The notes beneath the pieces were generated by a model. It was given only the letters and a program-made list of their open reading frames with translations, made no database searches and had not been told where the DNA came from. A program made the position numbers and the translations under genes. DNA of 55,138 bases from a virus (lineage: Duplodnaviria; Caudoviricetes): IMG/VR virus record IMGVR_UViG_3300027861_000039, positions 1-55,138 of that record; one strand, written 5' to 3'. How positions within the stretch are numbered: the first letter of the stretch is position 1; the number at the start of each line of letters is the position of its first letter. This document shows, one piece after another, positions 13,236 through 32,079 of this stretch.

Positions 13236-13951
13236 TATTCCGTCTTTCTGTAAGTAGTCTCATCTAGTACTGTAAAACCACCAACTGTAATAGCGTTGTG
13301 ATATTTACCTACGCAAACAATCTGTCCAGTTGCTATTGGAATACCTGTAATGGTTTTATCCGCTACCTTAGTCCACTCATCAGCGTCGAAGGCGTGAGCG
13401 TCAGTTATATGTTGATTTGCAACGTAAACAAAAGTGGTGTTTGTTCTAACTTCACCCATACGAAACGTATCACTTGCACTGTGAGCTTTACCTACGCAAT
13501 CTACGCCATAAGTTGTAGAACTATCAACGCCTGTTGCTAACACTATATCGACGGTTGGAACTTGAGTTCCGTCGCCAGATGTTAGGGTGACTGTATTTGT
13601 TGGGTTAGCGCCGTTCCAAGTAGCAATAAGATCATCAACATCATCAATGCTATCTGCAGTAAGGGTTATATTACCAGCAGTACCGGCAAAGTCTGCAGTA
13701 ACAGTAACGTCTGTAGTTAGACCGGCAACTTGACCTGGACCGAAAATTCCTAAAGTTGACCCAACGATTTTAATGTAAGAACCGAAAGATACCTGTTCAT
13801 TAGGCGTATATAGAGCCTTAATAACAGGCTCTACAGTAATCCCTTTTTGTGAGCCGGAGGCGTCATTATATATCGCATTTTGGATATAATCCATATCCCA
13901 AGTCATGCTGAACACTCGTTGGATTATGTTTTTAATTTTTTTAATCGCCAT
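13235..13951 (-). CDS. Putative virion structural protein
   Basis: Thr/Val/Gly-rich; late motif and AGGAG upstream. Confidence 0.6.
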   Translation of the reverse strand: MAIKKIKNIIQRVFSMTWDMDYIQNAIYNDASGSQKGITVEPVIKALYTPNEQVSFGSYIKIVGSTLGIFGPGQVAGLTTDVTVTADFAGTAGNITLTADSIDDVDDLIATWNGANPTNTVTLTSGDGTQVPTVDIVLATGVDSSTTYGVDCVGKAHSASDTFRMGEVRTNTTFVYVANQHITDAHAFDADEWTKVADKTITGIPIATGQIVCVGKYHNAITVGGFTVLDETTYRKTE

Positions 13952-13966
13952 TATTTCTCCTATTAT

Positions 13967-14578
13967 TTAAAGATTGTTTTTATATCTAAAGATGTATTTT
14001 ACACACCTTTTGGTGTTTTTAAGATATTGAGGCATATTACCCTTAGACATATTGATATGATTAGCACAATCCGTCATGTTAATACCTTCCCATATTAATT
14101 TGTTACTATTTCGATCTATAACTTGAAAAAACTTACCACCATGATTTATTGAGGAGTTTTCTCTGTTTTTACTGTTTAACCATCTTTTTTGCATAGACTT
14201 TTTATGTTTATTCAAAAGCGAGATATTAGCAAACCTTTTCTTTTGAGCTTTTGATTGTGATTTTTTCATTTTTTCGATAGAGTCTTTGTGCCATTTTCCT
14301 CTCGAACCACCACCCTCTCTTATGTTATATCCATTGGGAGCTAAGCTATTGAATTTATGTATTAAAAGCCATTCTTTATAGTTTAATTCACTTAAACTAT
14401 TTGCACCGTCAATTTCTTCTATAGTGAAATTTTCTGGTCCGTATTTTTGGATGGCTGATTTTAAAGCTGTACATGAATTAGAACTACAATGTACAGACCA
14501 TCTTTTTTTAATGTCCTTTATGGTTTGACCGATATACGTCTTATCATTAATTTTGTTGGTTATTTTATATATAAACAT
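13967..14578 (-). CDS. GIY-YIG homing endonuclease (copy 3)
   Basis: FIYKITN..YIGQT..KYGPENFTIEEIDGANS..NGYN. Confidence 0.9.
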   Translation of the reverse strand: MFIYKITNKINDKTYIGQTIKDIKKRWSVHCSSNSCTALKSAIQKYGPENFTIEEIDGANSLSELNYKEWLLIHKFNSLAPNGYNIREGGGSRGKWHKDSIEKMKKSQSKAQKKRFANISLLNKHKKSMQKRWLNSKNRENSSINHGGKFFQVIDRNSNKLIWEGINMTDCANHINMSKGNMPQYLKNTKRCVKYIFRYKNNL

Positions 14579-14580
14579 AA

Positions 14581-15510
14581 TTATTCAAAATTCTTTACAT
14601 CGACCTTTACTTTAAACTTATTAGGGTCTATTGGTTGGTCCGGCGCTGGAACAGTCCTGTTGGTTTCATTGTCTTTGTCTGAATTTTGACTGTCTCCTCT
14701 CACACGTTGGTGATAAACATACTCTCTTTGAATGACGGCTTGATAAGGTAGTCTACTTTCTTTTCTAATACCGTTCTCAGTCGTTTGGCTGATTCTAAGC
14801 TCATTAACTATTTGAGCAATATACCAGTGAGCTTCATACCTATACCTAACAGAATAAACACGACCTTTACCAGTATCTGTATCTATGCCAGGATTCTTTT
14901 TTCCATCAATCCATCTAATATTTCCAGCGTTTACTTTTCCTCTAGTTATTCTAAAGTGAACGCCTTCTTTATACATAACACCTTGAGAGTCCATAAGACT
15001 TTCAACGCAAGTTACTGGAAACTGTAAATAATCATCCCCATTTGGATTGTAATTTACTCTTTGATAGTTAACTACGTCTTTTTCTTTTTTATCAACATTT
15101 TTTAAAAATATTCTATCGCCAGGACATAGGTGTATTCTTTCTCCGGCTTCTTCGTCAGAGTCTTCATTGTAAAATCTAGGCAATGTAAGTCTACCTTCTG
15201 ATATGTCGATTAGACCGCCATCGCCAGCTTTTTTACTTTTACTGTTACCCAATATTGTAGCGTTAAACTCTCCACACTTTGTATAAATAAAGCCGTTCTC
15301 ACTTAAAGTATCCAAAGCGTCGCTTCTTCTATATTCTCCACGATCTTTCAATCCAATTGGAGATGGCATGGCTCTATAGTGAACAAAACATGGACCGTAG
15401 GCTGTGACGAATTGATCTTGCTTGTCTAAGTTAAACGAAAGCTGATCTAAATCCATCGGTGATTTAGGTAGGGTGGTTGACTGTTTTCCTTTAGCGTCTT
15501 TTTTACCCAT
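14581..15510 (-). CDS. Putative head-tail joining/neck protein
   Basis: 309 aa; GDRI.L, YSVRYRY...W, LP.QA..RE pattern reminiscent of SPO1-like neck proteins; position. Confidence 0.5.
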   Translation of the reverse strand: MGKKDAKGKQSTTLPKSPMDLDQLSFNLDKQDQFVTAYGPCFVHYRAMPSPIGLKDRGEYRRSDALDTLSENGFIYTKCGEFNATILGNSKSKKAGDGGLIDISEGRLTLPRFYNEDSDEEAGERIHLCPGDRIFLKNVDKKEKDVVNYQRVNYNPNGDDYLQFPVTCVESLMDSQGVMYKEGVHFRITRGKVNAGNIRWIDGKKNPGIDTDTGKGRVYSVRYRYEAHWYIAQIVNELRISQTTENGIRKESRLPYQAVIQREYVYHQRVRGDSQNSDKDNETNRTVPAPDQPIDPNKFKVKVDVKNFE

Positions 15511-17137: not shown

Positions 17138-20100
17138 CTACCCCATTTCTTCCATTTCTGGATTATAGCCCTTACTTTCTTTCATAGCCTTCTTAGCCTT
17201 GATATGAGCCATCATCTTTTGCCTGATCTTCTCAGCTAGGTCTTTTTTACCCATCTCTTTAGCATTAATATAGGCGTTTATGTTGCCTTGCAGCTCGTTT
17301 TTGCCCGAAAATGGGTCAAAAGAATATATACCCTTATCGTACATTTGCAGTTGATCTTTAGCGTGTTTTCGGCTTTTTTCAGTCTCAGACTTTGAACTAA
17401 CACCTCTTTGAGGAGATCGGAATGGTTCAACGCCAGCTCTTCTAGCAATGCCGGCTTCCATTTGTTGAGCTGATTGCTCTGGCATACCGCCGCCGTGAGC
17501 GTCTCTCAATTCAGTTCTATGTTTGGTTTGATGTAGTTTACCTTTATATCCAGGCTCACCGATAGCATCTTGGTACTCTTCTAAACCTGCGCCTGGAGGA
17601 GTTAGCATTGCGTGCGCTCCTTCGTGAAGTAGCTGCTGATCGTGTGGGTCGCCTTTAGCATTAATAGTAACACTTGTCGGATTGTGAGAACCAAGGTCTC
17701 TTCTATTGCCGCCGCCAGTATCTGGAGTTAAACCAACACTTTCTAAATATTTACCGATTCTATCAACTCGATTTTGTTCATTAGCCTTACCATCAAAACC
17801 TTCCGTCGCCATTCTTTTATCGTGGATAGGTTTGCTAAACTCACCTTTCTTAATAGTATGTAAGTGATTCAAAGCCTCAGCCGCATGTTTTCTATATTCT
17901 GGGTCTGGATGGTCTTTAATAGCTTTCTCAAGAAAAGAGTGAATTCCTTTTTTATTTCTAAGCCTCATGGTTTTAGAAGAATGTCTATAGTCAGGGTGGT
18001 GAACTTCAATTACCTTATGATCAGGAAAATGAATAGGAAGCTCTTTTTTAATCTTATCAACAAGCTCAGTAGTTTTACCTTCATTTCCATAGTCTGACGT
18101 ATGTAAAAGTAACGTGTTATCATTTAAAAGTTTAACAACAGGGTAGTGTGAGCCAAAAACATTAACAGTAGATGGAACTTGACCTGTCATCTTAGCCCTT
18201 TTAGAGCCTTTCATTTTATCTTCACTAGGCATAGAGTATATTCTCTGAAACATAGTCTTAGTGCTTTTTTTATCTTCTTTTAGGTCAGTAAGAGCTTGGG
18301 TTACTTTCTTATCTTCCTTACCAGGCTTATTAATTGGGTCGCTAGCTTCTGTGATGTGATCGTCAGGAGCTGGTCTGCCAGACTCTCTGATCATTTCTTG
18401 TTCGTGAGCGATATCTTTTATAGGCTTTGCAGCGTCTTCAGATTTTCCAAGCTTACTGTCATTTGTATGCCAATTTCCATTTATAATATGGTCTGGTAGA
18501 AGACCGGCTTTTTGGTCAGCATACCTAGTCTCAGCTGGAGCCGCTCTATTATGGTCTCCATGAGGACCAAAGTTTACCCAAGAGTTTTGACCTAAAGTCT
18601 CTGTTGCTAATGCTTTCTGAGCTAGTGGTGAGAACATTTTTTTATGTGTATTGTAAGCTTGATGCTCACCTTTAGCTCCAAAGCCGCTTTCCCCACCTTT
18701 GTGGTGACCGTTAATATCATGAACTATTCTGAATATATCGTTAGCTAAAAGATCATGACCGTCATGTTTAATACCAGTCTTTCCAAGCATAGGGTGGTCT
18801 TTAGGAGCGCTATCTCCACTACCAAAGCCTTGATCTGTTGGGTAGAACCACATATGGTTGTTATTTTTAATGTCGTGATGTAGCTCTTTAGAATTTTTAT
18901 ATGGGTTATCCATTCCAGGCTTCATTCTGGAAATCTTAATACCGCTATTCATAATATCATTAAATTGATTTTTAGTTTCACCAATCAAAGCGCCGTAAGC
19001 CTCTTGAACGTCAGGATTGTTAGGGTCGTGCTGTACCTTGTCGTACTCACCAGCAATAGCCTTGCCGTGTTCTTTGTTTATTTTAACTTCACCCTTTTCA
19101 TGCTGGTCTTCGCTTTTAAACATTCTACGATGAGTAAAATTAACGGCGTTTGTAGGCTCCCCAGTACTGTCTTCATTAGGCTGCTGCCCTAGTTCTGGAG
19201 CACTCATAGGCTCTCTACTAGCCTCACCGTGAGTACTCTTAATACCGTTTTTCCAGGCGTTAAGCATTAGCTCATGATCGCCTTCAAACTCTTTATGTAA
19301 TTTGTCATAGTGAGCGTTATGAACGTCATCTCTAAGATTTGGATTTTTATTAACCACTTCTTTAAGAGTTCTATTACTAAGCTTATTAATATAACCATAT
19401 TTAGCGCCAAGCTCTGGGCTAGACTTTATAGTTTGCTTATAAACATGATGACTTAGACCTTCAGAGTACTTACCTAAGAACCAATCTTTATCAGCCTTAT
19501 AGGTAGCGTCAGAGTATTCTCTTTTAAGTTTTTCACGCTCTTCGTCTCGAGAAGAAACATCTTCACCAATAGAAGCTGCCGTTCTAGCATGTTTTGGGAT
19601 ATTTTCTGATGAGAACTGTTCGTTAGCTGTTTGTTGAGAGTCTTGGTTGATACTGTGAGCGCCTTGAAACATTGCTAACGCAACGGCGGCTCCTTTAAGA
19701 GCATTCTTACCTTCACCTTTCTCTAACATCTCTAAGTAGTCTTCAATATGTTTCTTAAGAAGCTTAGGTGTTAGGTTGTATGTGTGACCGCCATGGTCAG
19801 TATCTGGCTCAGGCTCTATCGGAGCTGGAACTGGAGTATTTATTAATCCGTCGTATGTATGAGTTAAGGGAGTTTTGTTTATAATAGAATCTTTAACATT
19901 TTGCCTGTCTTGTGGACCCATAGAAGTCCACTCTGCTGTTTCATCCTCTTTATCAAAGGTACTTACAGACTGACCCATATCTTGAGTTCTTCCTTGATGA
20001 CTGTAAGCCAGATTTTTATGGTGCTGTATGGTATCTAAAAAATCATCGTCATGAACGTCAGACATATTATGATCTGCCTTGTCTCTCATAACCATTCTTA

Positions 20101-22993
20101 TGTAGTCTATATTGTTTACATGAAAATCACTAGCAGATTCATGATTAGCCGCCCTACTTTGAAATATTTGCTCTTGGTTTTCACCTTCCTTACCTTTTTT
20201 TACAAAATTACTCTTAGCATCTTCCGTTAGTGGTAACGTGTCTGAATCAGAAGGTTTAAAACCCATAGATCGTGGAACTTTTTTATAGCTATCTTTATAG
20301 ACTGAATGTATTTTGTCAGAGCCGGTATGTTTAGATTTAGACTCTGCCGAATGGGTTGAGACTTTTTGAGCGCCATGCTTCTTGGCTTCTTTCAATACAG
20401 AATTAATGATGTTTTCACGCCAATTTTTATGGTGTGCAGAAATTTTATCAATATGCTCTGCTTTTTGCTGAGAGCCGTTTTCTTTCAAATATCTAGTAAC
20501 TGTTTTGCCAAAATCTGACTGAACTTCATCAATCATCCAGTGCTCTGGGTCGGTTGTATCAACTCTAGCCCAAGCTATTGTGTTGTCATTGGTAGGGTGA
20601 CCTGATTGTTTTGAAACTTTCTGAACGTGTTTAAAAGTACCATACAGGTCTTTATCTTCCTTTAGAGGAGCTAGGCTATCTGGGGAGTGGTCAAGTCTAA
20701 AAATTACTTGATCTCTCTTATTGATATTTTGCATACTGTCACCCCACTTACTGTAGGATATATCGTACTTGGTTTTAGGTAGCTCTGAGACTTTTTGAGT
20801 AGCCTCATCACTAGTAATCTTACCTTTGCCTTTGAATATCTTTTTCCACTTCTCTTTTTGGTTAGGGTAAAGTTTATTCATAGTACCAACGTCTATTTTA
20901 CCGTTGTTGGCGTCGGCGTGATCTTTAACCATTTCATAAAAATGTTGATCTTCGCCATACTCGTGCTCATAGCCTCTATCTTTTATAGTTTTATTTAAAA
21001 AAGAACTCTCACCGCCGTCAGCTCTTTTTCTTTTGTGTCTATCATTTAACTCATTGAAGTTAGGAATGTGATCGTGTAAATGCTCTGGAATAAACCTTGT
21101 ATCTTGATGGGCGTCTTCATATAAATCATTAAGATGCTCTTGATTGTTTTCTTCAACATAATTTTCAACAGCGCTATTATACTGATCTTGCCAATCTTGG
21201 TCTTCTCGGTTTGCGTAGTGTAAGTCATGACTGTGAACTAATTCATGATAATGTACGCTATCACTATCTCCAAGAGTATCGGCACGCCAAGCTAATGCTG
21301 CGTCATCGTATCTTTGCTGATATTCAGGGTGCTCTTCAACGCTATCATCTTCAAGATGGTTTATCCTAGAAGGACCGCCGTACTGATCTAGAGCTGCTTT
21401 TATATCGTCAATATGAACCGTATTAAGACGACTATCATCTCCTTTTAGTCCTAACTCATCCCAGCTACCAACTCTAGAAGCTTCAAGAGATTGATTAGCA
21501 CGATTTAAAGGAATCATACCGTCAGAATATGTTTTATTGTTGTTGTAGATTTCGTTTAAAGCTTGAAAGGTTGGGTCTCCATAGTTTTGAATTGAGTCTG
21601 GATTGTCTCTAGTCCAATCATTAGCTGTATGCCTGTCAAACATTTTCTCTCTAACAGCTTCATCGTCATCGCCCTCGCCGCCAATTTCGGCTGCAATTCT
21701 ATCAGAGTTATAATAAAGGTGATTATATAATGGATAGTTTTCATCAGCTCTATTTGAGGCATCTTCATGAGCTTCGTCCCTAAGAGAGTCTAAAACATTG
21801 TCAGGTAAGTCGTTTGTTTCGTATATATCATCTTTATTATCTTGATAATGTATATTTAAATCTTCAGCGTCGTAGCCGTGCTCACCCTCATCATCGTACC
21901 ATTTTTGGAACATTTCAGCGCCATGCTTAGGGTCTATATTTTCATTATGATACAGATCGTATTTTTCTGTAAAATCCCCATGTCTTTTAATGTGCTCAAT
22001 TTGTTTTTCATCTAAGTACTCACCATTAATTAGCTGGTCCCTAACCTTGTTATGGTTAGGGTTGTAACTGTGAGTATTCCAATTATCCCAATTTTCAGCG
22101 TCAAACTCTTCTTTAGTGTCAAAATCATTCGGGTGAGAGTGGGAGTGCTCTCCATGCATACCTAAAACTTCATCCATCCAAGTTTTTTTCCAAGAAGGCT
22201 CTGCATCTTTTAATAGTGCATCTATATGGTGGTACGGCAGTCTGTGAGATGCATGTGTTAGTAGGTTTTGGATAATATTAGGTTTGAGGTTTAACGATAC
22301 CTCTGGTCTGTCGCCAAAAACTTCATCAAAATGGCTAATTGATGTTTTCTGTTTATTGATAATTTTAGAAATGTCGCTTCCAGATATGTTTTCAAGATTT
22401 TCAGGATTGCCTAGAGTTAAATCTATCACCTTGTCGTCAAAATGTTTACTATCAATAAGATGCTCTAACATATGTGGATGTTCTTTAGCCATCTTATACA
22501 TATGGGTTTTAGTAAAACCTGGATTTTTTATAATATGCTCATCGCCATCATTGGCTAATTCAGATATTTTTTTAGGAGATAGGTTAAAGTTCCTCTTTAT
22601 ACCTCTCATTCCTTTGCGATATTGCATGGCAAGATCACGCTTAACCGCTATTATAGCATCTAAATCATCTACACCGCTATGTTGAGCTTCTAAATCTTCT
22701 AAGGCTGCTTCGTTGTTTTCAGGAGTGTCGTGCTCTTCTATCGCCGCCGCTCCGCTTTGACTATGTAGATTTGTCCACCAGCTACCACCCTTCCTATTGG
22801 TTGTTAATTCTTTATATTGATCTGTAGACAACTTACCCCACTTATCTATAAATTTATTAAAACCTGTAGGAGTAACAACCTTTTCCCAATCCTGACTAAT
22901 TTGAGCGTCAGTTTCAGTATCTACATGGTCTGGAAACATGTCGTCCTGCTGCGCCTTAATCAAATCGATAATTTTTCTATAGTGTCTTGTCAT
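17138..22993 (-). CDS. 1951 aa polyvalent-type multi-module protein
   Basis: Modules with IDEVQSDF, FRIVHDINGH..ETLGQNSWVNFGP and LLHEGAH motifs separated by LIKA, LEKG, MFKS, LGKS, LEKA, IKKG. Confidence 0.7.
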   Translation of the reverse strand: MTRHYRKIIDLIKAQQDDMFPDHVDTETDAQISQDWEKVVTPTGFNKFIDKWGKLSTDQYKELTTNRKGGSWWTNLHSQSGAAAIEEHDTPENNEAALEDLEAQHSGVDDLDAIIAVKRDLAMQYRKGMRGIKRNFNLSPKKISELANDGDEHIIKNPGFTKTHMYKMAKEHPHMLEHLIDSKHFDDKVIDLTLGNPENLENISGSDISKIINKQKTSISHFDEVFGDRPEVSLNLKPNIIQNLLTHASHRLPYHHIDALLKDAEPSWKKTWMDEVLGMHGEHSHSHPNDFDTKEEFDAENWDNWNTHSYNPNHNKVRDQLINGEYLDEKQIEHIKRHGDFTEKYDLYHNENIDPKHGAEMFQKWYDDEGEHGYDAEDLNIHYQDNKDDIYETNDLPDNVLDSLRDEAHEDASNRADENYPLYNHLYYNSDRIAAEIGGEGDDDEAVREKMFDRHTANDWTRDNPDSIQNYGDPTFQALNEIYNNNKTYSDGMIPLNRANQSLEASRVGSWDELGLKGDDSRLNTVHIDDIKAALDQYGGPSRINHLEDDSVEEHPEYQQRYDDAALAWRADTLGDSDSVHYHELVHSHDLHYANREDQDWQDQYNSAVENYVEENNQEHLNDLYEDAHQDTRFIPEHLHDHIPNFNELNDRHKRKRADGGESSFLNKTIKDRGYEHEYGEDQHFYEMVKDHADANNGKIDVGTMNKLYPNQKEKWKKIFKGKGKITSDEATQKVSELPKTKYDISYSKWGDSMQNINKRDQVIFRLDHSPDSLAPLKEDKDLYGTFKHVQKVSKQSGHPTNDNTIAWARVDTTDPEHWMIDEVQSDFGKTVTRYLKENGSQQKAEHIDKISAHHKNWRENIINSVLKEAKKHGAQKVSTHSAESKSKHTGSDKIHSVYKDSYKKVPRSMGFKPSDSDTLPLTEDAKSNFVKKGKEGENQEQIFQSRAANHESASDFHVNNIDYIRMVMRDKADHNMSDVHDDDFLDTIQHHKNLAYSHQGRTQDMGQSVSTFDKEDETAEWTSMGPQDRQNVKDSIINKTPLTHTYDGLINTPVPAPIEPEPDTDHGGHTYNLTPKLLKKHIEDYLEMLEKGEGKNALKGAAVALAMFQGAHSINQDSQQTANEQFSSENIPKHARTAASIGEDVSSRDEEREKLKREYSDATYKADKDWFLGKYSEGLSHHVYKQTIKSSPELGAKYGYINKLSNRTLKEVVNKNPNLRDDVHNAHYDKLHKEFEGDHELMLNAWKNGIKSTHGEASREPMSAPELGQQPNEDSTGEPTNAVNFTHRRMFKSEDQHEKGEVKINKEHGKAIAGEYDKVQHDPNNPDVQEAYGALIGETKNQFNDIMNSGIKISRMKPGMDNPYKNSKELHHDIKNNNHMWFYPTDQGFGSGDSAPKDHPMLGKTGIKHDGHDLLANDIFRIVHDINGHHKGGESGFGAKGEHQAYNTHKKMFSPLAQKALATETLGQNSWVNFGPHGDHNRAAPAETRYADQKAGLLPDHIINGNWHTNDSKLGKSEDAAKPIKDIAHEQEMIRESGRPAPDDHITEASDPINKPGKEDKKVTQALTDLKEDKKSTKTMFQRIYSMPSEDKMKGSKRAKMTGQVPSTVNVFGSHYPVVKLLNDNTLLLHTSDYGNEGKTTELVDKIKKELPIHFPDHKVIEVHHPDYRHSSKTMRLRNKKGIHSFLEKAIKDHPDPEYRKHAAEALNHLHTIKKGEFSKPIHDKRMATEGFDGKANEQNRVDRIGKYLESVGLTPDTGGGNRRDLGSHNPTSVTINAKGDPHDQQLLHEGAHAMLTPPGAGLEEYQDAIGEPGYKGKLHQTKHRTELRDAHGGGMPEQSAQQMEAGIARRAGVEPFRSPQRGVSSKSETEKSRKHAKDQLQMYDKGIYSFDPFSGKNELQGNINAYINAKEMGKKDLAEKIRQKMMAHIKAKKAMKESKGYNPEMEEMG

Positions 22994-24192
22994 TGCTTTT
23001 TAAACCTTTCATTTAAATTATGCAAAAACTCATGATTAGGGTGACCGTTATCGTCAGCATATTCTTTAGCTTTATTTTTTTCTTCTTCTAGGGCATGGTG
23101 ATCTTTAGCAGACGTTTCTTTAAAGTCTTCTAAATGTATTGGGTGCTCACTATCAGGCTTCACTGTTTCAAACATACCAACCGCCCTACTCATATCTGAA
23201 GGTAGTCCAGAGTTATATATTCCACTAAAGCCGGAGTTTTTAATCTCAGCGTGAAAAGCCGGCTGTCTCATATATGGCATTATTTGTTCGCCATGCTTTG
23301 CTGTGAGCTTATCCATAGCTGTTTGGTATAGATCGTTAGGGTCTTTAGCAATATCGTATAGTTTTTTATCTCCCAAATTTGTAACATATTTTGATTTAGA
23401 GCCAGAAGTTACTACATCTTCAGGTTGAATCCCTTCAGCGTAGTAAAACGCCATTTTATGTTCAGGAGCGCCCTGCTTGGATTCAGAGCCAATTTTACGC
23501 TTTCCTTGAAAATTAGGGTCTATCTCTTCCAAGCCTTGTTCAGGAGAATAGTGAATTAACTTTGTATCAGGTCCAGCCGTTTCAAAAGGATGTTTTTTAT
23601 CTTCAGATTTTTTTAGGTGAAAATAGTTATTACGAATATAAACTTCAGATTTTTTCATCTTACCAGCAACATCTTTAATGAAGTCTGATTTTTTGTGAGT
23701 ATCTTCAAAATCAAATCCGTGAGTAAAATGACTCCCGTCTGCTAAAGTTGAATAGTAATCTTCTGGCTGATCTTTATGAAAAACAGTACTTTCACCCTTA
23801 TGATGTCTACCGGCTTTATCGCCATTTATGTAGTGCATTTCGTGCTTATAGCCGTCAGATATAATAGACGACTCTTGACCTAATGAGGCTGCAAAATTAT
23901 TTAAATGCTTATATGAGCTTTTTGGAGGATTATGAACTAAGATGCTTTTTTCTTTAGTCCCATACATCCCTTCCATACCCTCAGCCTTATAACCTTTTTG
24001 AGCTAAAAACTCTAAAGTTTCGTCGTGAGACATTTGTACTTTGGAAGGATATTTAGGGTTTTCGGATGAGAAGATAAAATGAGGTTTTTTATCATAAATA
24101 GGATGAGTACTTTCAGTTTTCCACAAACTTGTAATAAAGCTTTCTTTTTTACTAATATTTTGCTTAATATTCTTGTAGATGTTTTTATACAT
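22990..24192 (-). CDS. Two-module protein: SAM-lyase-like plus ART-like domain
   Basis: SSENP..GMYGTKEKSILV..LGQESSI, then MKKSE/LKKSE linker, then LIHYS..AFYY..LYD..GFSGIY. Confidence 0.55.
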   Translation of the reverse strand: MYKNIYKNIKQNISKKESFITSLWKTESTHPIYDKKPHFIFSSENPKYPSKVQMSHDETLEFLAQKGYKAEGMEGMYGTKEKSILVHNPPKSSYKHLNNFAASLGQESSIISDGYKHEMHYINGDKAGRHHKGESTVFHKDQPEDYYSTLADGSHFTHGFDFEDTHKKSDFIKDVAGKMKKSEVYIRNNYFHLKKSEDKKHPFETAGPDTKLIHYSPEQGLEEIDPNFQGKRKIGSESKQGAPEHKMAFYYAEGIQPEDVVTSGSKSKYVTNLGDKKLYDIAKDPNDLYQTAMDKLTAKHGEQIMPYMRQPAFHAEIKNSGFSGIYNSGLPSDMSRAVGMFETVKPDSEHPIHLEDFKETSAKDHHALEEEKNKAKEYADDNGHPNHEFLHNLNERFKKQ

Positions 24193-24236: not shown

Positions 24237-25055
24237 TTATATGTTTGTTAAATAATACTTACTGTGAAAAATCGATTTAACTCTAGCCATAAGCTTGTCT
24301 TTACGCTCTTCAAGCTTTTCAATCCTTTCCTTGTATGTTTGTGGACCTAAACCACTAGTTGCTTGAGATAAGCCGTCTTGACTTAAACTTTGAGATGTAT
24401 TAGTTATTTGGTTCTGTTTAGCGCTTAATATTTCAATAGCGGTGATCATACCAATAATCTGATTAACAACTACAGGGAGTTTTCCCTCTTCCTTGCATAA
24501 ACCAGAAGTGTATTTTATCGTCCAAAAAGCCGGTAGCCATTTATAGTTACTTAAGGATTGTAGGAAGATTAAAGCGCCGTCTGGAGCAGACGTTGCAATA
24601 GTTCCTGACGTTCCAAACACTGTCAAGATCGGCAAAAGGTTAATTTGCCCTTTATGTGCAAATCCCATTTCAATCCAGTCAGCAGGTAGTTTGTAAATAT
24701 TCGTACCGTTAGAGCTTTCAACCGCAAACAGATCAACGCTTAAAACAGGCTTATGGTTCATTTTCCAATGTAGGAAGTTTTTGTATAGGTTTGAATCGTA
24801 AGGAACACGTTCGTTAAACTGCTCTCTCATTACAGTAACGCCAGAAAAAAGCTCAAACTCATTAATTGCTAGATTAATTTCGTCCTTCAACTCGTCTGAA
24901 GTATAGTCGCTTACATCAACGCCTTTTAAGTATCTTGATTTAAGTTTTTCTGGAGTCAATAAGGTTTCAACCCTACTTAGTAAGTTTGAAGTTTCTTCAG
25001 CCTCTACAGGGTATGATTTTTGGGTTCTAAGTTTAGAATCTGTTAAATCAGCCAT
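24237..25055 (-). CDS. Putative head-tail adaptor
   Basis: LTPEKLKSRYL.G, IKYTSG, QSLSQDGLSQ pattern of SPO1-like adaptors. Confidence 0.65.
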   Translation of the reverse strand: MADLTDSKLRTQKSYPVEAEETSNLLSRVETLLTPEKLKSRYLKGVDVSDYTSDELKDEINLAINEFELFSGVTVMREQFNERVPYDSNLYKNFLHWKMNHKPVLSVDLFAVESSNGTNIYKLPADWIEMGFAHKGQINLLPILTVFGTSGTIATSAPDGALIFLQSLSNYKWLPAFWTIKYTSGLCKEEGKLPVVVNQIIGMITAIEILSAKQNQITNTSQSLSQDGLSQATSGLGPQTYKERIEKLEERKDKLMARVKSIFHSKYYLTNI

Positions 25056-25057
25056 AT

Positions 25058-25726
25058 TTATTCCTCTATATATGTAAAAACATAACCTTTGTGTGATTTT
25101 TGCTTGTTAGTCAGACATCTCCAGATACCTGCCTGGAAAATACTTAAATCTCTAGCGCATTCGGATTGATTAGTCCAAGCACCAACGTAACAATCTTCTT
25201 TATTTTTTACTTTAAATCGCTTGCCGCCGTGTGCAATAGATAACTTAACTCTCTCTTCTTTGTTTAACTTTGTTCCTATTTTATGACTTATATATCCTAT
25301 TTTTGCTAATCTCATTTTTTGTTTAGTTGATTCGGTATGTTTTTTACCTAAAGCTTTTTTTCTTATTTTATTTTTATGTTCTTGAGACAGTTTTTTACCT
25401 ATTTGTTTTTGTCTCATCTTTTCAATAGAATCTTTATGCCACTTTCCTCTATTGCCACCACCCTCTCTTAAGTTGTATCCATTGGGAGCTAAACTATCGA
25501 ATTTATATACTAAAAGCCATTCTTTATAGTTTAACTCTGATTGACTGTTTGCTCCGTCGATCTCTTCTATGGTGAAATTTTCTGGTCCGTACTTTTGAAT
25601 GGCTCTGTGAAGGATAGAGCAACTTTTATCTGTACAGTGTTTTCTCCATCTGTAGCTTAATTTTCCAATAGTTTGACCTATATAAATCTTACAGTTAACT
25701 TTATTGGTCACCTTATAGATTATAAT
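25058..25726 (-). CDS. GIY-YIG homing endonuclease (copy 4; ATT start)
   Basis: ATT at 25726, 6 nt after GGAGG, restores MIIYKVTN; YIGQT; NUMOD3-like KHTESTKQKMR. Confidence 0.88.
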   Translation of the reverse strand: MIIYKVTNKVNCKIYIGQTIGKLSYRWRKHCTDKSCSILHRAIQKYGPENFTIEEIDGANSQSELNYKEWLLVYKFDSLAPNGYNLREGGGNRGKWHKDSIEKMRQKQIGKKLSQEHKNKIRKKALGKKHTESTKQKMRLAKIGYISHKIGTKLNKEERVKLSIAHGGKRFKVKNKEDCYVGAWTNQSECARDLSIFQAGIWRCLTNKQKSHKGYVFTYIEE

Positions 25727-26228: not shown

Positions 26229-26858
26229 ATGAATAATTATTTAGACGTACTTTGTATAGATGGAATATTGGGTGTTGGTAAGACAACTCAAGTTGTAATC
26301 TTTCATAACCTATTAAAATCAAACAACATACCTCACAAAGTAATCTCTTTTAAAGAGGTTGACGGTACTGACTTTACCGCTCAGCAGCTTAAAAAAATAT
26401 CAGAATATCTAAAAGAAGAGCCTGACGGCGTTGTGCTCTGCGACGGCTCTATTGCTATCGATATTGTAGACGATATTGTTTCTAACATGTATCGCAGCGA
26501 TCTTTGGACCAAGCATAAGGATAATATTCAAGCTTACGAGTCTTTAAATAATCAATATAATTTTGTCAATGTTTTACTAACGCCTAATGATCTAGACATA
26601 TGTGATCGTAGGCTTAAAAAGAAAGCAGACATGTCTGGCGAAGAAAAAGTAGAGTTAAACAATAAAGAACGACTAAGGCTCATTATAAATGGGTTAAGAC
26701 AGTTTGACCATAGCATGTTAACTTGCAATGTGAAGTTTAACAACTTAAATCTAGATGGACATGAAAGTATTATGGACGTTCACGATCAAATATCTGAAAT
26801 CATTATGAAAACTCTACAAATAAAAAAACCTTCCAAAGGAAGGTCTTCTCAATCTTAA
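26229..26858 (+). CDS. Thymidylate/deoxynucleoside kinase-like P-loop protein
   Basis: LCIDGILGVGKTTQ; VVLCDG where dTMP kinases have DR; R.L.K lid-like segment. Confidence 0.65.
   Translation: MNNYLDVLCIDGILGVGKTTQVVIFHNLLKSNNIPHKVISFKEVDGTDFTAQQLKKISEYLKEEPDGVVLCDGSIAIDIVDDIVSNMYRSDLWTKHKDNIQAYESLNNQYNFVNVLLTPNDLDICDRRLKKKADMSGEEKVELNNKERLRLIINGLRQFDHSMLTCNVKFNNLNLDGHESIMDVHDQISEIIMKTLQIKKPSKGRSSQS
26822..26844 (-). terminator. Intrinsic terminator
   Basis: ACCTTCC-TTT-GGAAGGT followed by T run on minus strand. Confidence 0.6.
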
Positions 26859-26871
26859 ATTTCTTTTGGTT

Positions 26872-27168
26872 TTACTGAGATTTTGCAGCTTTCTTTCGAG
26901 CCTTCTCAGCAGCTTTCTCAGCTTTCTCAGCTTCTTTAGCTTCTTTCTTAGCCTTGGCTGTAGCTTTTTTAGCAGCTTCTTTAGCCTCTTTAGCTTCAGC
27001 TTTTTCTTTAGCAGCCTTTGCTTCAGCAGCTTTTACAGCTTCTTTAGTGCCAGGTTTCTTAGAGAGTTTTTCAGACATCTCTACTTGACATTCAGCCCAT
27101 TTTTTACGAGACTCTTCACATCCACAAAGAGCTTTGTTTACTAGCTTGTAGTAATCTAATCTTTCCAT
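26872..27168 (-). CDS. K/A/E-rich low-complexity helical protein
   Basis: AKEAKEAAKKA repeats, AGGA SD. Confidence 0.65.
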   Translation of the reverse strand: MERLDYYKLVNKALCGCEESRKKWAECQVEMSEKLSKKPGTKEAVKAAEAKAAKEKAEAKEAKEAAKKATAKAKKEAKEAEKAEKAAEKARKKAAKSQ

Positions 27169-27618: not shown

Positions 27619-28011
27619 TTAACTGTCCATCCAGTACTTTAGAACGATATTGTGCTCTACTGGAACGTGAAGGTTATCAGAAACTTCGTTTGGGTCCATA
27701 TATTCCCAGTCATCACACTCTTTGTCAGGGTCTTTAGAGGCGTCTACCAGTTGATCTGGGTCTACTTTTACCTCGAAAACATAAACCATAACATCGCCAT
27801 TTTTACGAACTTTTACAAGTTTCGTATCGATGGCATCTAGCCCAGTTTCTTCCTTACACTCTCTTATACATCCCAAATATGGACATTCACCCTTATCAAG
27901 ATGACCGCCAGGCTGAGTAAACTTACCGTTATCGTTGCGTTTTCCCATTAGAAGATCGTCCTTCCAATCTCTAATTAAACAACATGCAACACGTTTGGTT
28001 TTTACCTTCAC
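27619..28011 (-). CDS. NUDIX hydrolase
   Basis: Nudix box GGHLDKGECPYLGCIRECKEETGL. Confidence 0.9.
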   Translation of the reverse strand: MKVKTKRVACCLIRDWKDDLLMGKRNDNGKFTQPGGHLDKGECPYLGCIRECKEETGLDAIDTKLVKVRKNGDVMVYVFEVKVDPDQLVDASKDPDKECDDWEYMDPNEVSDNLHVPVEHNIVLKYWMDS

Positions 28012-29432
28012 AGTTCTTCCAACTTCTTTTCAGCTTTGATCTGTTCAATATAAGAATAGGTTTTAGCAACGGCTAATACCTCTCTCTTATTCATGTTTGG
28101 TTCTTTATCTGATAGGAAACTAATCAGCTCATCTTTATACTGGTAGTTTTTCCAAGACTCTTCTGATAAGCTTTTGAGAACTTTTTTTCTTTTAGCTTTG
28201 CGTTTTTTTAGATCAATACCTAAATCTTCCACTTGAAGAGCAGCGCCACCAGTTCTAGCGCCAGGAGCGCCTGAGCCAATAGAGGCTGTTATGGCTTTTC
28301 TAACGTTAGAAGTATAAAACGCTTTTTCTGAAGCAGCCAACGTAGGATATTCAAGGTCTTGTTTTTTAGGTGTTTTAGGTCTTTTATCAAGCCTTTCTTT
28401 GAGGTTTTTCTGTCCTTCAGGTCTTTTCATTTCCCGTGCGCCTAAGGTAGTAAACTTTTCCTTAGTCTTAGGTGTAAAGCCTGGTTTTCTTTTAGCTCTA
28501 TCTCTCTTCTTTTGTTTTGGAGACTTGCCTTGATCAACTAATGCTTTTTTCATTTTCTTCTCAGACTTTTCCCAGGTTTTTGGGTCTTTGTAAATCTCAG
28601 CTCCAGTTCTAGGTCTTTTCTTGTCGTAAGAAATTCTATCACCCACTTTCATTTTGTCAGGAGCATCTTTAGGAGAAAACTCTCTTTTAGGTTTTGGCAG
28701 TGCAGAGCCAGGACTTTTTTCGCCAGAATTAGGAGCTAAAGGCTTGAAATTACTCTTACTTTTAGGGTCTTTGTCTGGATTGAACTTGCTCTTGTTTTTA
28801 TCCCACTTTCCAGTGAAATACTTCAAATCACCCTTCATAATTTCAATTTCGATCTGCTCATTCTTCTTGAATTTGCTTAGAATTTCTTTTGAAATATCGA
28901 TTCCACCTTTCTTTTTAGTGCCTTGGGATGGAGAATCGAGCTGCTCAGCATGGGCTGCTTTATTGCATGGGTGAATAGTAGCAGTTACTTTTCTAGCAAT
29001 ACATTTTGTAATGTTGGAGCCTTCTCTTCCGAGTCTAGACCCTTCTATTGAAAAATTAATTAAAGCTTTGGTTTCGTCTTTATTGAGATTTTTATCGTAT
29101 CTAAGCATAGCGGCAACATTCTCAGCCTCTTTATGACCAACTTGATCGAAAAGCTCAGCTGCTACGTATATATATGGCATTTTGACTTTATTCCAGAAAT
29201 ACTTATGGTGCTCTGTTTCGCAGTCGTCTTTTTTAAGGATTTTTTTAGCTTCTAGTATTTTACCAACAATGCAGGATGCTGTCTTACTTTCATGCTCCCA
29301 ATTGATAACGCCTTCAGTGGTAAGAGAGCTAATATCAACACCGCTTATAATGATACGTTCACCGCTAGAATCTAAATGTTCTGACGCCGCAATACCATGC
29401 AGAAACGTGCCGTGTTTTTTATTTTTATCCAT
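28008..29432 (-). CDS. Prohead (maturation) protease with long basic C-terminal tail
   Basis: GIAASEHLDSSGE, INWEH, IVGKI, FSIEG, VTATIHPCN (HK97/SPO1-type protease motifs). Confidence 0.85.
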   Translation of the reverse strand: MDKNKKHGTFLHGIAASEHLDSSGERIIISGVDISSLTTEGVINWEHESKTASCIVGKILEAKKILKKDDCETEHHKYFWNKVKMPYIYVAAELFDQVGHKEAENVAAMLRYDKNLNKDETKALINFSIEGSRLGREGSNITKCIARKVTATIHPCNKAAHAEQLDSPSQGTKKKGGIDISKEILSKFKKNEQIEIEIMKGDLKYFTGKWDKNKSKFNPDKDPKSKSNFKPLAPNSGEKSPGSALPKPKREFSPKDAPDKMKVGDRISYDKKRPRTGAEIYKDPKTWEKSEKKMKKALVDQGKSPKQKKRDRAKRKPGFTPKTKEKFTTLGAREMKRPEGQKNLKERLDKRPKTPKKQDLEYPTLAASEKAFYTSNVRKAITASIGSGAPGARTGGAALQVEDLGIDLKKRKAKRKKVLKSLSEESWKNYQYKDELISFLSDKEPNMNKREVLAVAKTYSYIEQIKAEKKLEEL

Positions 29433-30030: not shown

Positions 30031-30687
30031 ATGGAATACAATGAAAATGAAATGGCAAAGCTTATTAGTGAAGTTGAGACCGAGTTCAAAGACTACCTAA
30101 CAAAAGCTGAAAACACAGAATCTGGAGAAGCAGAAGTACCTGCGGAAGAGATTGTTTTAGAAAAAAATGAAGATTTTGATTATGATGAAGCAGATATTTC
30201 AGAAATGAATGACATGTATGCGTCAATGACGAAAAGTGAAAAAGAAGCTCACTATTCTGCAATCAAGTCTACTCTCTTTGCTGAAGAAGCGCCGGCTGCT
30301 GAAGAAGCACCTGCTGAAGAAGTAAATCTTAATAAGTCAGAGTTCGATACTATAAAGACCGATCTTGAAACTTCTAAAGAAGAAAACGCTAAACTTCAAA
30401 AAAATCTTGAAACTTTAACAAGTATTATGACTAAATTTGTTAAAAAAGCACCTGTTCGTAAGGCTGTAACTCAACTTAATGGAATCGAATACATTAAGAA
30501 ATCTGAGCCTGAAGCGCCGGCAGAACCTGTAAAGGTAGATGTTGACAAACTTACTAAATCTGAAGTTAACAAAATTCTTGTAACTAAAATCAGAAATGGT
30601 GAAATTCAAAAAACCGAAGACAAAGAAAATATTAACAAATTTTGCCACGGTGAAATTAAAATAGAAAAAATTAAACATCTATTATAG
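30031..30687 (+). CDS. Scaffold protein
   Basis: Acidic coiled-coil just before MCP; LTKA, LEKN, MTKS, LNKS, LQKN, VRKA, IKKS, LTKS, IQKT motifs. Confidence 0.8.
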   Translation: MEYNENEMAKLISEVETEFKDYLTKAENTESGEAEVPAEEIVLEKNEDFDYDEADISEMNDMYASMTKSEKEAHYSAIKSTLFAEEAPAAEEAPAEEVNLNKSEFDTIKTDLETSKEENAKLQKNLETLTSIMTKFVKKAPVRKAVTQLNGIEYIKKSEPEAPAEPVKVDVDKLTKSEVNKILVTKIRNGEIQKTEDKENINKFCHGEIKIEKIKHLL

Positions 30688-30696
30688 GAGGAAATA

Positions 30697-32079
30697 ATGG
30701 TTAATCAACTAAATGATTTGATGAAGGCTCTTGAAGCCGGTCAATACAACGCTGCACCAGAGACACTGGTTCAAGGTTCAGCATTACAGGTAGAAGATTT
30801 ATCTCCTGTGATGGAAAATGTTACTTTTGATGACTCGCACATCAAATTACAAAAAATGCTTCGTATTGAAGATGCCAAGTCTACTCTGATTCAGTTCAAT
30901 AGACAACTTGATTACGGTATTTTTGGTGGGTCTGCCCAACATGAGGGTGGAATCGGCGAAGAAGACACTTCTAACTTTGCACGAGCAATTGTGCCAATGG
31001 CATACTACTCAACAGTTAGACGTGTAACTGTTGCTGCTAATATGATTGGCGCTTTCGACGGTAAGCAAGCTGAAAGTAGAGCATCTGACGACGCTGCTAT
31101 GAAACTTGCTGGAGATATCGAGTTTGACGCTTTTAGAGGCGCTTCTGATTTCTCTAACGCTGGAGTTTTTGACGGTAACCCGTTGGCTTCTGCTGCTATT
31201 CCTAATATGAGAGGAGTTGATTCTCAAATTCGTGAGTCTGACGCTCTTTCAAATACTCAAGATTTAATGTTTGCTGAATACGGTTCTGATCAGTCAGTAA
31301 TTGTATCTGTAAACGGGACTCTTACCCAGTCTTTTATTGAAGATGCCGCTGTTAAATCAGCCATGCAACATGGTTCTGCTGACAAGCTTTTACTTGACCC
31401 AGTTTCTTTGAGTCAATATAACAAGATTGCTCATGCTAAAGAACGTATCATGCTTGCAGGTTCTGCTCAAGAAGCTTCTGGTGCGAATCTTCGTACACAA
31501 TGGACTTCTTCTGCTCTAGTATCCATGGAAGCTTCACGCTTTCTATCTGGAAAAACTAGACCAGCTAGAGCAAGAGCTGGAAGTTTAGCCGCTCCTGCAA
31601 TCGCTGGAACTTCTCCAGTAAATGCTGCTTCAGTACTTCCTGCTGGAACTTATGTTTACTTCGCAACTTCGGTTAGCGAAAGAGGCGAGTCAGTAAAAGC
31701 CGCTGATGAGTCTGTAACAACTGCAGCTGGAGATTCTGGTACAATTACCATTACTCAAGTAGCTGGAGCTAAATACTACAACCTATACCGTTCAGAAGAC
31801 GGCGGTTCTAGTACAACTGCCAAATTTATTGGTAGAATTGCTGACAGTGGCGCTGCTACTACAGTATTTACTGACCTTGGAAACAGAGAGCCTGGCTCGA
31901 TTACTGGATTCCTTCTTCAGTCAAATACTATGGGACTTCACCAATTGTCTGCATATAGTAAGCTAAAACTTGCTATCAATGACTTGAGTCTTCCAGAAGC
32001 TCACTTTCGTTTCCTATGTTTAGCTGTTAAGCAGCCTCGTAAGAACGTATTGCTTGAGAATATTTCTGGTCAACTCTAA
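30697..32079 (+). CDS. Major capsid protein
   Basis: 460 aa; LMKAL.AG....GSALQVEDL, DYG..G, internal Ig-like insertion (YYNLYR), PRKNVLLENI C-terminus as in SPO1-like MCPs; AGGAGG SD, strong terminator. Confidence 0.9.
   Translation: MVNQLNDLMKALEAGQYNAAPETLVQGSALQVEDLSPVMENVTFDDSHIKLQKMLRIEDAKSTLIQFNRQLDYGIFGGSAQHEGGIGEEDTSNFARAIVPMAYYSTVRRVTVAANMIGAFDGKQAESRASDDAAMKLAGDIEFDAFRGASDFSNAGVFDGNPLASAAIPNMRGVDSQIRESDALSNTQDLMFAEYGSDQSVIVSVNGTLTQSFIEDAAVKSAMQHGSADKLLLDPVSLSQYNKIAHAKERIMLAGSAQEASGANLRTQWTSSALVSMEASRFLSGKTRPARARAGSLAAPAIAGTSPVNAASVLPAGTYVYFATSVSERGESVKAADESVTTAAGDSGTITITQVAGAKYYNLYRSEDGGSSTTAKFIGRIADSGAATTVFTDLGNREPGSITGFLLQSNTMGLHQLSAYSKLKLAINDLSLPEAHFRFLCLAVKQPRKNVLLENISGQL

Follow-up and report, generated by a model that had tools for sequence, protein, structure and literature searches.

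What does a phage protein do that carries, on a single chain, a domain resembling the S-adenosylmethionine (SAM) lyases and another resembling the ADP-ribosyltransferases (ARTs), and at what stage of infection would it act if its gene lies among those for head assembly? The question is raised by a gene on IMG/VR virus record IMGVR_UViG_3300027861_000039 (Duplodnaviria; Caudoviricetes), a viral record of 55,138 bases that was analysed over its whole length (hereafter the window) and represents an estimated 36% of the genome. The original prediction, made from the sequence alone, had described a two-enzyme anti-defence cassette coupled to a neighbouring gene of 1951 amino acids (aa). The open reading frame (ORF) is real, and all the strings quoted from it (FIFSSENP, LAQKGY, EGMYGTKEKSILV, AASLGQESSI, MKKSE, LKKSE, LIHYS, IDP, AFYY, KY, LYD and GFSGIY) are present. 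The two domains and the coupling were borne out; the gene, on the other hand, sits in a head-assembly block and corresponds to the detached N-terminal part of a polyvalent giant, and its role against host defences is one that we infer. What was called a cassette is, in our view, more probably cargo of the phage head that stems from a split polyvalent protein and bears probable cut sites for a protease.

The AlphaFold2 model, built on 32 relatives (mean predicted local distance difference test [pLDDT] of 84.5), consists of a helix (residues 2–24), a first domain (about 34–165), a disordered segment (176–197), a second domain (about 205–360) and a helical hairpin (365–399). The first module of the original prediction (about 23700–24090) corresponds to residues 35–164, which make up the model's first folded domain. 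Structure comparison predicted no other fold for either module. Searches of PHROGs and NCBIfam gave no match for the 400-aa protein. The gene and the features of its first domain are as follows.

22990..24192, minus strand: gene of the two-domain protein (P0001), ATG start, 400 aa (ORF list and translation)
23698..24093, minus strand: SAM-lyase-like domain with a PII-like fold, residues 34–165 (match to PF23780 and to the T3 SAMase fold)
23944..23970, minus strand: G75-M-Y77-G-T-K-E81-K-S83, counterpart of G56/Y58 and E69/S71 in Svi3-3 and of G55/Y57 and E68/T70 in T3 SAMase
23869..23877, minus strand: Q106-E107-S108 (B-loop), counterpart of Q104-E105-S106 in Svi3-3

The first domain is, with high confidence from its sequence and model, a member of the SAM-lyase family, and the kinship with T3 SAMase and Svi3-3 that had been proposed from its motif is thereby upheld. 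Pfam family PF23780 (S-AdoMet_lyase) matches residues 53–155 with an E value of 2.1e-5; the same family is matched by 22 of the 32 aligned relatives at E <= 0.01 (best 1.3e-9), and in the fused relative P0093 the score of 35.9 bits exceeds the curated cut-off. Comparison of the model by VIA-align placed T3 SAMase first (7ock_L, Z 10.3, 126 residues aligned, root mean square deviation 4.0), with Svi3-3 (6zm9_A) at Z 5.8, and the top three Foldseek matches of the domain were 8bb1_E (E 1.4e-3), 7ock_K and Svi3-3 6znb.

The residues that contact the ligand are kept as well. T3 SAMase, translated from NC_003298, carries G55-C-Y57, E68-K-T70 and Q94-D95 at the corresponding positions. Among 221 relatives of the domain aligned with the family hidden Markov model, the Gly is kept in 208, the Tyr in 216, the Glu in 216, the Ser in 207, the B-loop Gln in 218, the following Glu or Asp in 218 and the last Ser in 214. 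According to the passages of Guo et al. 2021 (PMC7877911) cited here, only Gly56, Glu69 and Gln104 of Svi3-3 are strictly conserved among active SAMases; Tyr58 of Svi3-3 lies packed against both the sulfonium and the reactive carbon, the ribose is held by Glu69 and Ser71, the homoserine end is held by Gln104, Glu105 and Ser106, and the E69Q exchange costs 4500-fold in activity.

Several observations weigh against a straightforward assignment as SAM lyase. The Pfam score of the window protein, 24.9 bits, lies below the curated cut-off of 28. Sequence searches of PDB chains with the whole-family and N-domain profiles gave no match at E <= 10, so that fold comparison was needed. The hhalign comparisons were non-significant both for the N-domain alignment against the single T3 SAMase sequence (E 0.21 over 18 columns) and for the family alignment against the single S-CREM2 gp6 sequence (E 0.19), and they were used only for residue correspondence. 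The window copy carries Ser135 (23788–23790, minus strand) where 211 of the 221 relatives carry Gly; its ORF is intact. The loop between Tyr and Glu, finally, counts 3 residues (Y77 to E81) as against 10 in T3 SAMase (Y57–E68) and Svi3-3 (Y58–E69). To our knowledge, no characterised lyase has a Tyr-Glu loop this short. The alignment to S-CREM2 gp6 places a clean 7-residue gap at this loop. Because the loop is shorter by 7 residues, we class the first domain as a variant SAM lyase with a short loop; the short loop is a variation within the fold and the ligand-binding residues are not lost.

The same loop separates the SAM lyases from the SAM-AMP lyases (SAM linked to adenosine monophosphate, AMP), and its unusual shortness here could also suit a domain that acts on SAM-AMP or another SAM conjugate, against type III CRISPR, or one with a different PII-like function of the DUF3293 type. 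A phage enzyme of the SAM-lyase family is described as cleaving SAM-AMP and not SAM, and the two classes are described as having just two residues structurally in common, the catalytic Glu and the Gln of the B-loop (PMC12255297, in the passages cited). With these two residues common to both, the substrate of the first domain is not readable from sequence, which also counts against a firm call. More distant first domains of the family match DUF3293 as well, the second domain still following them; our literature search found nothing on DUF3293. Against these options, the AMP part in SAM-AMP lyases is contacted by residues of the T-loop (PMC12255297, same passages), and the long T-loop on which they sit is missing here; the G-x-Y is kept, whose Tyr in Svi3-3 packs against the sulfonium; and structure comparison ranks the SAM-specific T3 enzyme first. 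We consider such other substrates or functions unlikely, and SAM, at slightly better than an even chance, the likeliest substrate of the first domain. A prediction of the N-domain as a three-copy complex, run without controls, scored 0.00 against a mark of 0.42 and speaks neither for nor against a trimer.

The second module had been likened to the ART domains of polyvalent proteins. The fold and the resemblance were confirmed; a Pfam ART match was not obtained, and the position of the expected Asp is occupied by Ser here and by His in most relatives. The features concerned are the following.

23113..23580, minus strand: ART-fold domain, residues 205–360 (C-domain model and fold comparisons)
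23551..23553, minus strand: conserved H214 of the ART-fold domain
23440..23442, minus strand: Y251 of the ART-fold domain
23353..23355, minus strand: D280 of the ART-fold domain
23224..23226, minus strand: S323 of the ART-fold domain

The model of the domain alone is confident (pLDDT 90.3; predicted template modelling score 0.81). A VIA search of 48,161 representative PDB chains returned 87 matches at Z >= 2 and 13 at Z >= 5, the best at Z 6.7, and almost all of the 50 matches listed were recognised as members of the ART superfamily. They are led by MbcT (Z 6.7) and a pre-ejectosome chain of cyanophage A4 (Z 6.4), followed by homologues of diphtheria toxin (Z 5.1–5.5), and also comprise CC0527, tRNA 2'-phosphotransferases (Tpt1), ParT, RES toxins, Scabin, catalytic domains of PARPs, Arr, DarT and pierisin, together with the pseudo-PARPs TASOR and PARP13. 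The best Foldseek match in the PDB was AcrIF11 (6kyf, E 4.4e-3, probability 0.96, 12% sequence identity). In BFVD, nine viral proteins matched at E <= 0.001, several of them annotated as 'large polyvalent protein associated domain-containing' and one as a 'structural protein' of a Flavobacterium phage, and proteins named 'ART-PolyVal-like' and 'PolyVal ADP-ribosyltransferase' matched at E 2.6e-3 and 4.1e-3 (probability 0.99). On these model comparisons, we assign the ART fold to the second domain with high confidence.

That assignment has its own counterweights. The C-domain found no PDB match at E <= 0.001 with Foldseek, all ART scores are middling (Z <= 6.7), and a VIA Z below 8 may mean merely a common arrangement; the call of an ART fold was made because the match lists are one-sided, not because of the height of the scores. 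Pfam gave no ART match for the 400-aa protein (E <= 1), for the 32 relatives (E <= 0.01) or for six short relatives with the C-domain; none of these six carried a Pfam label.

Analysis of the conserved residues leads to the question of activity. In the ARTs of polyvalent proteins, the characteristic residues are a His in strand 1, a Tyr in strand 2 and an Asp in strand 5 (Iyer et al. 2017, PMC5512222, in the passages cited). In the model of the second domain, H214 lies in the strand 211–216 and Y251 in the strand 248–252, and among 144 relatives H214 is kept in 142, Y251 in 142, Y269 in 141, D280 in 142, E258 in 141 and D284 in 139. Strand 5 was placed through PF18760, starting from the PF18760 domain of a 1480-aa frame of Myxococcus phage Mx1 and aligning 19 PF18760-labelled relatives, in which the blocks VYHGT, G-x-G-x-YFT, P-x-Y-L-x-x-x-NP and G-[YH]-D-G-[IV] are conserved and the Asp is nearly invariant. 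Both hhalign runs paired K-x-A-G-Y-H-G-[IF] of the C-domain family with x-x-x-G-x-D-G-I of PF18760. The pairing is weak (E 0.0064 over 22 columns, or 6.4e-4 at a laxer setting, with a probability of 6–28%), and the C-domain alignment gave no meaningful alignment with the single ART-PolyVal segment of Mx1. Residue 323, which this weak alignment sets against the Asp of ART-PolyVal, is Ser in the window; of the 144 relatives, 119 have His at this position, 7 have Ser and 5 have Gln. These weak pairings and the missing Asp likewise tell against a canonical ART. The aligned sequences thus indicate that the NAD-binding pair H214/Y251 is kept and the canonical strand-5 acid is not.

Two other sets of catalytic candidates were dropped. 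The triad H214-Y251-D280, drawn from an Arr-like spacing, was given up when the PF18760 alignment moved the strand-5 position to 323, away from the invariant D280; E253, H353 and D356 are not kept across the wider family, from which H353 and D356 are absent (107 of 144, with 29 gaps). In the Mx1 record itself, positions 26348–27091 hold a canonical ART-PolyVal domain (PF18760, 36 and 30 bits with an insert) within the 1480-aa open frame.

The C-domain may also be something other than a protein ADP-ribosyltransferase: a glycohydrolase or phosphorylase of nicotinamide adenine dinucleotide (NAD+), a transferase directed at nucleic acid or phosphate in the style of MbcT, Tpt1 or DarT, or a catalytically dead ART fold that serves as a structural part of the capsid core or the ejection apparatus. 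The best VIA matches fit this option, since MbcT, the cyanophage A4 ejection protein, CC0527 and Tpt1 are among them and the pseudo-PARPs TASOR and PARP13 occur too, as do the absent strand-5 acid and the lack of a Pfam ART match. PARPs with an H-Y-[I/L/T] signature are active mono-ARTs, and PARP13 and TASOR are dead. Because of these active PARPs, loss of the acid is not proof of inactivity. The near-complete retention of H214 and Y251, together with the invariant D280, D284 and E258, which could supply the acid, points to selection for catalysis, and the top Foldseek match, AcrIF11, is an active phage ART. We regard a role other than protein ADP-ribosylation as possible, though the less probable course, and put activity of the second domain as an ART at a little under an even chance.

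Why, then, are the two domains encoded at this place? Comparison with the wider family suggests an answer. The search yielded 87 further homologues in the full-length range, and a scan of 1.84 billion representatives returned 575 clusters (at 50% identity) at E <= 0.001. Among 232 relatives collected, a sample biased by the two-domain query, 136 carry both domains, whereas 85 have just the N-domain and 11 just the C-domain; the domains occur in either order and also in non-adjacent places, in proteins of up to 2570 aa. The partner modules include GNAT, PI3/PI4-kinase-like and mCpol domains, with a GNAT-adjacent ART in P0137, P0141 and P0130. The longest of the proteins, P0126 (2570 aa), is a relative of the two-domain protein that also carries mCpol. 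In P0092 (2043 aa) and P0093 (1743 aa), the two-domain unit comes first and is followed by modules homologous to the 1951-aa protein (E 2e-101 over 779 columns; E 9e-127 over 388). In two related loci (L014 and L015), the two-domain gene at the same position is fused into a 1314-aa protein. Sequence homology identifies the 400-aa protein as the detached first piece of a polyvalent protein that is fused in its relatives, and the 1951-aa protein as the other piece.

17138..22993, minus strand: 1951-aa multi-module protein, other piece of the split polyvalent protein (homology to the fused relatives P0092 and P0093)
22990..22993, minus strand: ATGA stop/start overlap of the 400-aa gene with the 1951-aa gene (read directly)

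The coupling of the two genes is real: at the overlap, the minus strand reads AAG CAA TGA in the frame of the 400-aa gene and ATG ACA AGA in that of the 1951-aa gene. A close junction of this kind recurs in the related loci, where the gene after the two-domain gene starts between -8 and +3 bases from its stop. Upstream of the 400-aa gene lies a 272-aa gene, separated by a spacer of 44 bases with AAGG 7 bases before the ATG. In the IMG/VR loci, the two-domain gene follows a 142-aa gene and one of 272–277 aa, precedes at least one giant gene and always abuts the next gene. The window gene sits between the protease, scaffold and head protein genes on one side and the giant protein gene on the other, an order that is kept in the related loci.

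Turning to the segments between and beside the two domains, MKKSE and LKKSE had been taken as module borders. They do lie in the disordered linker, and they also fit a probable prohead-protease motif that is shared with the scaffold. The features that bear on this motif are as follows.

24112..24192, minus strand: N-terminal leader, residues 1–27, a Lys/Ile-rich helix (2–24) and LWKTE at 23–27
23602..23658, minus strand: disordered linker with MKKSE at 179–183 and LKKSE at 193–197, probable prohead-protease cut sites (pLDDT below 50 over 176–197)
22993..23112, minus strand: C-terminal helical hairpin, residues 361–400, helices 365–382 and 387–399
28008..29432, minus strand: prohead (head-maturation) protease, candidate cutter (phrog_1028, E 1.4e-11)
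30031..30687, plus strand: scaffold-position protein of 218 aa with 7 copies of the motif, encoded directly upstream of the major head protein
30697–32079: major head protein, 460 aa (phrog_752, E 2.8e-37)

Counts of the pattern [LMIVF]-x-K-[STAGN]-E in 53 window ORFs were compared with those expected from shuffled residues. The 400-aa protein holds three sites (LWKTE from 23, MKKSE from 179 and LKKSE from 193) where 0.26 are expected, all of them in low-confidence segments of the model; the 1951-aa protein holds four (0.84 expected) and a 314-aa protein at 12291–13235 another four (0.25 expected). The strongest excess is found in the scaffold-position ORF, with seven sites against 0.43 expected, a 16-fold enrichment with a Poisson tail of 3.7e-7. 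The protease itself, whose residues 1–185 are 38% identical to the 'putative prohead protease' of Mx1, has a single site, FKKNE at 188–192, right behind its catalytic domain. The window contains 26 sites in total, 25 of them within genes between 6360 and 30687 and one across the 20 ORFs beyond 32 kb.

Comparison with related sequences revealed the same distribution. Site 2 is kept in 31 of the 32 relatives of the 400-aa protein and site 3 in 24, and no site falls inside a folded domain. The scaffold-position ORFs of nine distinct related loci carry 5–8 copies each (0.28–0.49 expected), and the adjoining 460-aa head protein carries none. Among 223 distinct ORFs of related loci, 162 are without the motif and 21 have at least three copies; the latter are scaffolds, ORFs in the position of the protease, homologues of the two-domain gene and the giants downstream of it. 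The prohead protease of T4, gp21, cuts at the site L/I-x-E. We read h-x-K-[ST]-E as the probable cut motif of a T4-type prohead protease, because in these sequence statistics it is common to scaffold, protease and multi-module proteins, lies in linkers and ends in Glu.

Strings like h-x-K-[SN]-E (LIKSE, LQKSE, TKKSE, LGKNE, FHKAE) also precede the ART-like domain in P0130, P0136, P0105, P0126, P0174 and others. Their presence in unrelated polyvalent giants indicates that the motif accompanies the modules outside the close family too.

We treat the leader, residues 1–27, as a putative capsid-targeting propeptide. Its pLDDT is below 50 at 23–27, and Y2 and K3 are invariant in the 32 relatives. 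The 400-aa protein (MYKNIYKNIK...) and the 1951-aa protein (MTRHYRKIIDLIK...) both open with a similar Lys/Ile-rich helix, and the 314-aa and 238-aa proteins encoded at 12291–13951 start in a loosely similar way; both likenesses are impressions without statistics. The shared Lys/Ile-rich N-terminus may be a common capsid-targeting leader. The hairpin at the other end of the protein is found only in the close family, in whose alignment G383, F389, L390 and L393 are conserved.

A different view of these data is that the 400-aa protein is not packaged at all but is a cytoplasmic bifunctional enzyme made during infection, its K-S-E strings reflecting the composition of a Lys/Glu-rich linker. Packaging is in our reading inferred, and T3 SAMase, for its part, is a cytoplasmic protein made early (PMC8406200, in the passages cited). 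Motif site 1 (LWKTE) is poorly conserved, being present in 10 of the 32 relatives (14 with a relaxed pattern), and the major head protein lacks the motif. These two points also tell against packaging in general, as do three further circumstances: the motif was defined on the 400-aa protein and its neighbour, so that the independent tests are the scaffold and the related loci only; our literature search found no virion proteome of Mx1; and a promoter and terminator scan of the window gave no signal above chance (37 promoter-like sequences against 38.7 expected; 14 terminator-like against 8.9, standard deviation 3.4), so that 'late operon' is here a matter of gene position alone. On the other side, the gene lies in the head/virion block and is coupled to a giant protein of virion type; the motif is 16-fold enriched in the scaffold, recurs in nine related scaffolds and never falls inside the folded domains of the 32 relatives; and a SAM-lyase protein of similar size was detected in S-CREM2 virions (PMC10665884, in the passages cited). 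An unpackaged enzyme is, on this evidence, an unlikely explanation.

The surroundings of the gene place the window in a known phage group. Among cultured phages, the nearest is Myxococcus phage Mx1 (169.6 kb), with a head protein 54% identical to that of the window, and related complete IMG/VR genomes measure 155–167 kb. We take the Mx1 relatives to be a myovirus group with genomes of about 155–170 kb. Mx1 is also the single match for the two-domain protein among 50,697 phage records, and it matches through the first domain only. A SAM-lyase/DUF3293-like domain is separate in Mx1, lying in a 559-aa coding sequence just upstream of the tail sheath gene (WNM70344; L002, 5221–6900). Two further structural features of the window are listed below.

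14581–15510: virion structural protein
24237–25055: tail-fibre-family protein (phrog_772, E 4.8e-14)

Other genes of the window were noted in passing. An mCpol domain (PF18182, E 3e-13, residues 5–120) opens a 542-aa protein in the virion block (10653–12281, minus strand), which has a motif copy, FGKSE, at 460. A NUDIX hydrolase of 130 aa (27619–28011, minus strand; PF00293, E 2.2e-15) is encoded next after the protease, the two genes overlapping by 4 bases, and has one motif copy, LDKGE at 38; an ORF of 130–131 aa occupies the same place in related loci. Three ORFs resembling GIY-YIG homing endonucleases lie within the structural block, all on the minus strand (25058–25711, 13967–14578 and 3049–3705). 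The first, two genes upstream of the 400-aa gene, has backing from both Pfam and PHROGs (phrog_314, E 1.1e-34) and is missing at that spot in most related loci; the other two were judged GIY-YIG only by their near-identical N-terminal IYK-x-TN-x-x-N-D-K-x-YIGQT strings. A full-length GroEL-like chaperonin (34902–36668, plus strand; phrog_5725, E 1.9e-91) lies upstream of a terminase-like gene.

Taken together, we propose that the 400-aa protein is head cargo of an uncultured Mx1-like myophage, cut by the prohead protease and injected, a reading to which we give an even chance as a whole. The 400-aa cargo pro-protein would be made together with the 1951-aa piece through translational coupling and taken into the prohead, where the protease would cut after Glu at residues 27, 183 and 197. 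These cuts would free a lyase module of about 156 aa (28–183) and an ART-fold module of about 203 aa (198–400), both of which would exit the capsid together with the DNA. Probably trimeric, as its relatives are, the lyase module would split SAM into methylthioadenosine and homoserine lactone and might starve SAM-dependent type I and type III restriction and BREX ahead of any phage gene expression. The ART-fold module may bind NAD+ through H214 and Y251 and either modify a host target or hydrolyse NAD+.

It is also conceivable, though quite improbable, that the lyase and ART modules are a functionally coupled pair and not independent passengers, which would shut the SAM supply at DNA entry, or else that the ART-like module represents a new H-Y-H clade with non-canonical NAD+ chemistry. 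In such a pair, the lyase would destroy SAM and the ART-like partner would block SAM resynthesis or a SAM-dependent defence enzyme; in either version, the modules would arrive pre-made, as head cargo released by the protease. Behind this idea stand the at least 136 relatives with both modules in both orders, the lost T-loop and the replacement of the ART acid by His or Ser. T3 SAMase is described as doing both jobs alone (PMC8406200; bioRxiv 2023.02.27.530186; in the passages cited).

If the head-cargo proposal is true, this phage group would bring a disarming enzyme ready-made in the capsid against SAM-dependent restriction and BREX instead of awaiting its expression. The family is large, with its 575 clusters, yet almost absent from cultured phages. 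It yields a short-loop branch of the SAM lyases and an ART-fold family that has neither the usual acid nor a Pfam model, and the candidate motif h-x-K-[ST]-E could predict capsid cargo of Mx1-like phages from sequence alone. It would not be a new kind of system: the packaging of polyvalent effectors was predicted in 2017, and 2023 brought a report of a virion-borne SAM hydrolase. Our literature search found no title on a phage fusion of SAM lyase and ADP-ribosyltransferase and no paper linking a SAMase with polyvalent proteins, the terms co-occurring only in unrelated contexts.

Comparison with known systems starts with T3 gp0.3 SAMase (7OCK, 8BB1) and Svi3-3 (6ZM9, 6ZNB), with which the first domain shares the PII-like fold and the residue set G-x-Y, E-x-S/T and Q-[ED]-S. 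The predicted freed lyase module (156 aa) is close in length to T3 SAMase (152 aa). T3 SAMase is the product of a free early gene, whereas the lyase domain here is part of a two-domain, presumably late protein of the head module. Another known protein with such a domain is gp6 of Synechococcus phage S-CREM2, annotated as 'SAM hydrolase (virion protein)' (OR473000), which was found by mass spectrometry in CsCl-purified virions with 19 peptides and 26% coverage; its authors propose that it enters with the DNA and protects against restriction (PMC10665884, 2023, in the passages cited). With 414 aa and PF23780 over residues 37–170 (70 bits, E 2.3e-19), gp6 has its lyase domain at the N-terminus and about the same length as the 400-aa protein. 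It differs in belonging to a T4-like cyanophage, in its long T-loop and in a gene outside the head module, and its part after the lyase domain gave no alignment with the ART-like domain.

Polyvalent proteins are described by Iyer et al. 2017 (PMC5512222, in the passages cited) as giant phage proteins encoded near structural genes, in which unrelated effector domains are shuffled and which are predicted to be packaged and injected; ART is their commonest enzymatic module, often beside GNAT. The main text of that study names no SAM-degrading domain. The second domain has in common with ART-PolyVal (PF18760) the His of strand 1, the Tyr of strand 2, the block [K]-x-A-G-[YH]-x-G-[IF] and a similar fold. 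It differs in the strand-5 residue, Asp in ART-PolyVal and His or Ser here, and the polyvalent protein here is split into two coupled genes. An ART-like fold is also present inside the capsid of cyanophage A4, in residues 1419–1606 of the ejection protein 9k3a_B, the second-best match of the C-domain (Z 6.4); ADP-ribosylation does not come up in the text of the paper on this structure.

AcrIF11 is an ART of phages and plasmids that ADP-ribosylates Csy1 as an anti-defence measure, and its activity needs H20/Y46 together with D146/E147, or D115 in 6KYF, with a variable helical insert between them (bioRxiv 10.1101/2024.08.26.609590, in the passages cited). It resembles the C-domain in being a small phage ART fold in which a helical insert separates the Tyr from the strand-5 residue. 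AcrIF11 is unlike the C-domain in requiring the acid, where the aligned region here has no conserved acid, and in being a free small protein and not virion cargo. The scheme proposed here has a parallel in Alt and the internal proteins of T4, which enter the prohead, are trimmed behind a Glu by gp21, the head protease that breaks down the scaffold as well, and are injected with the DNA (Iyer 2017). T4 Alt is an ART of the R-S-E type, and the C-domain here is of the H-Y type. The motif h-x-K-[STAGN]-E is one residue pattern longer than the gp21 site, and its statistics suggest that the 400-aa protein would be cut in the same way.

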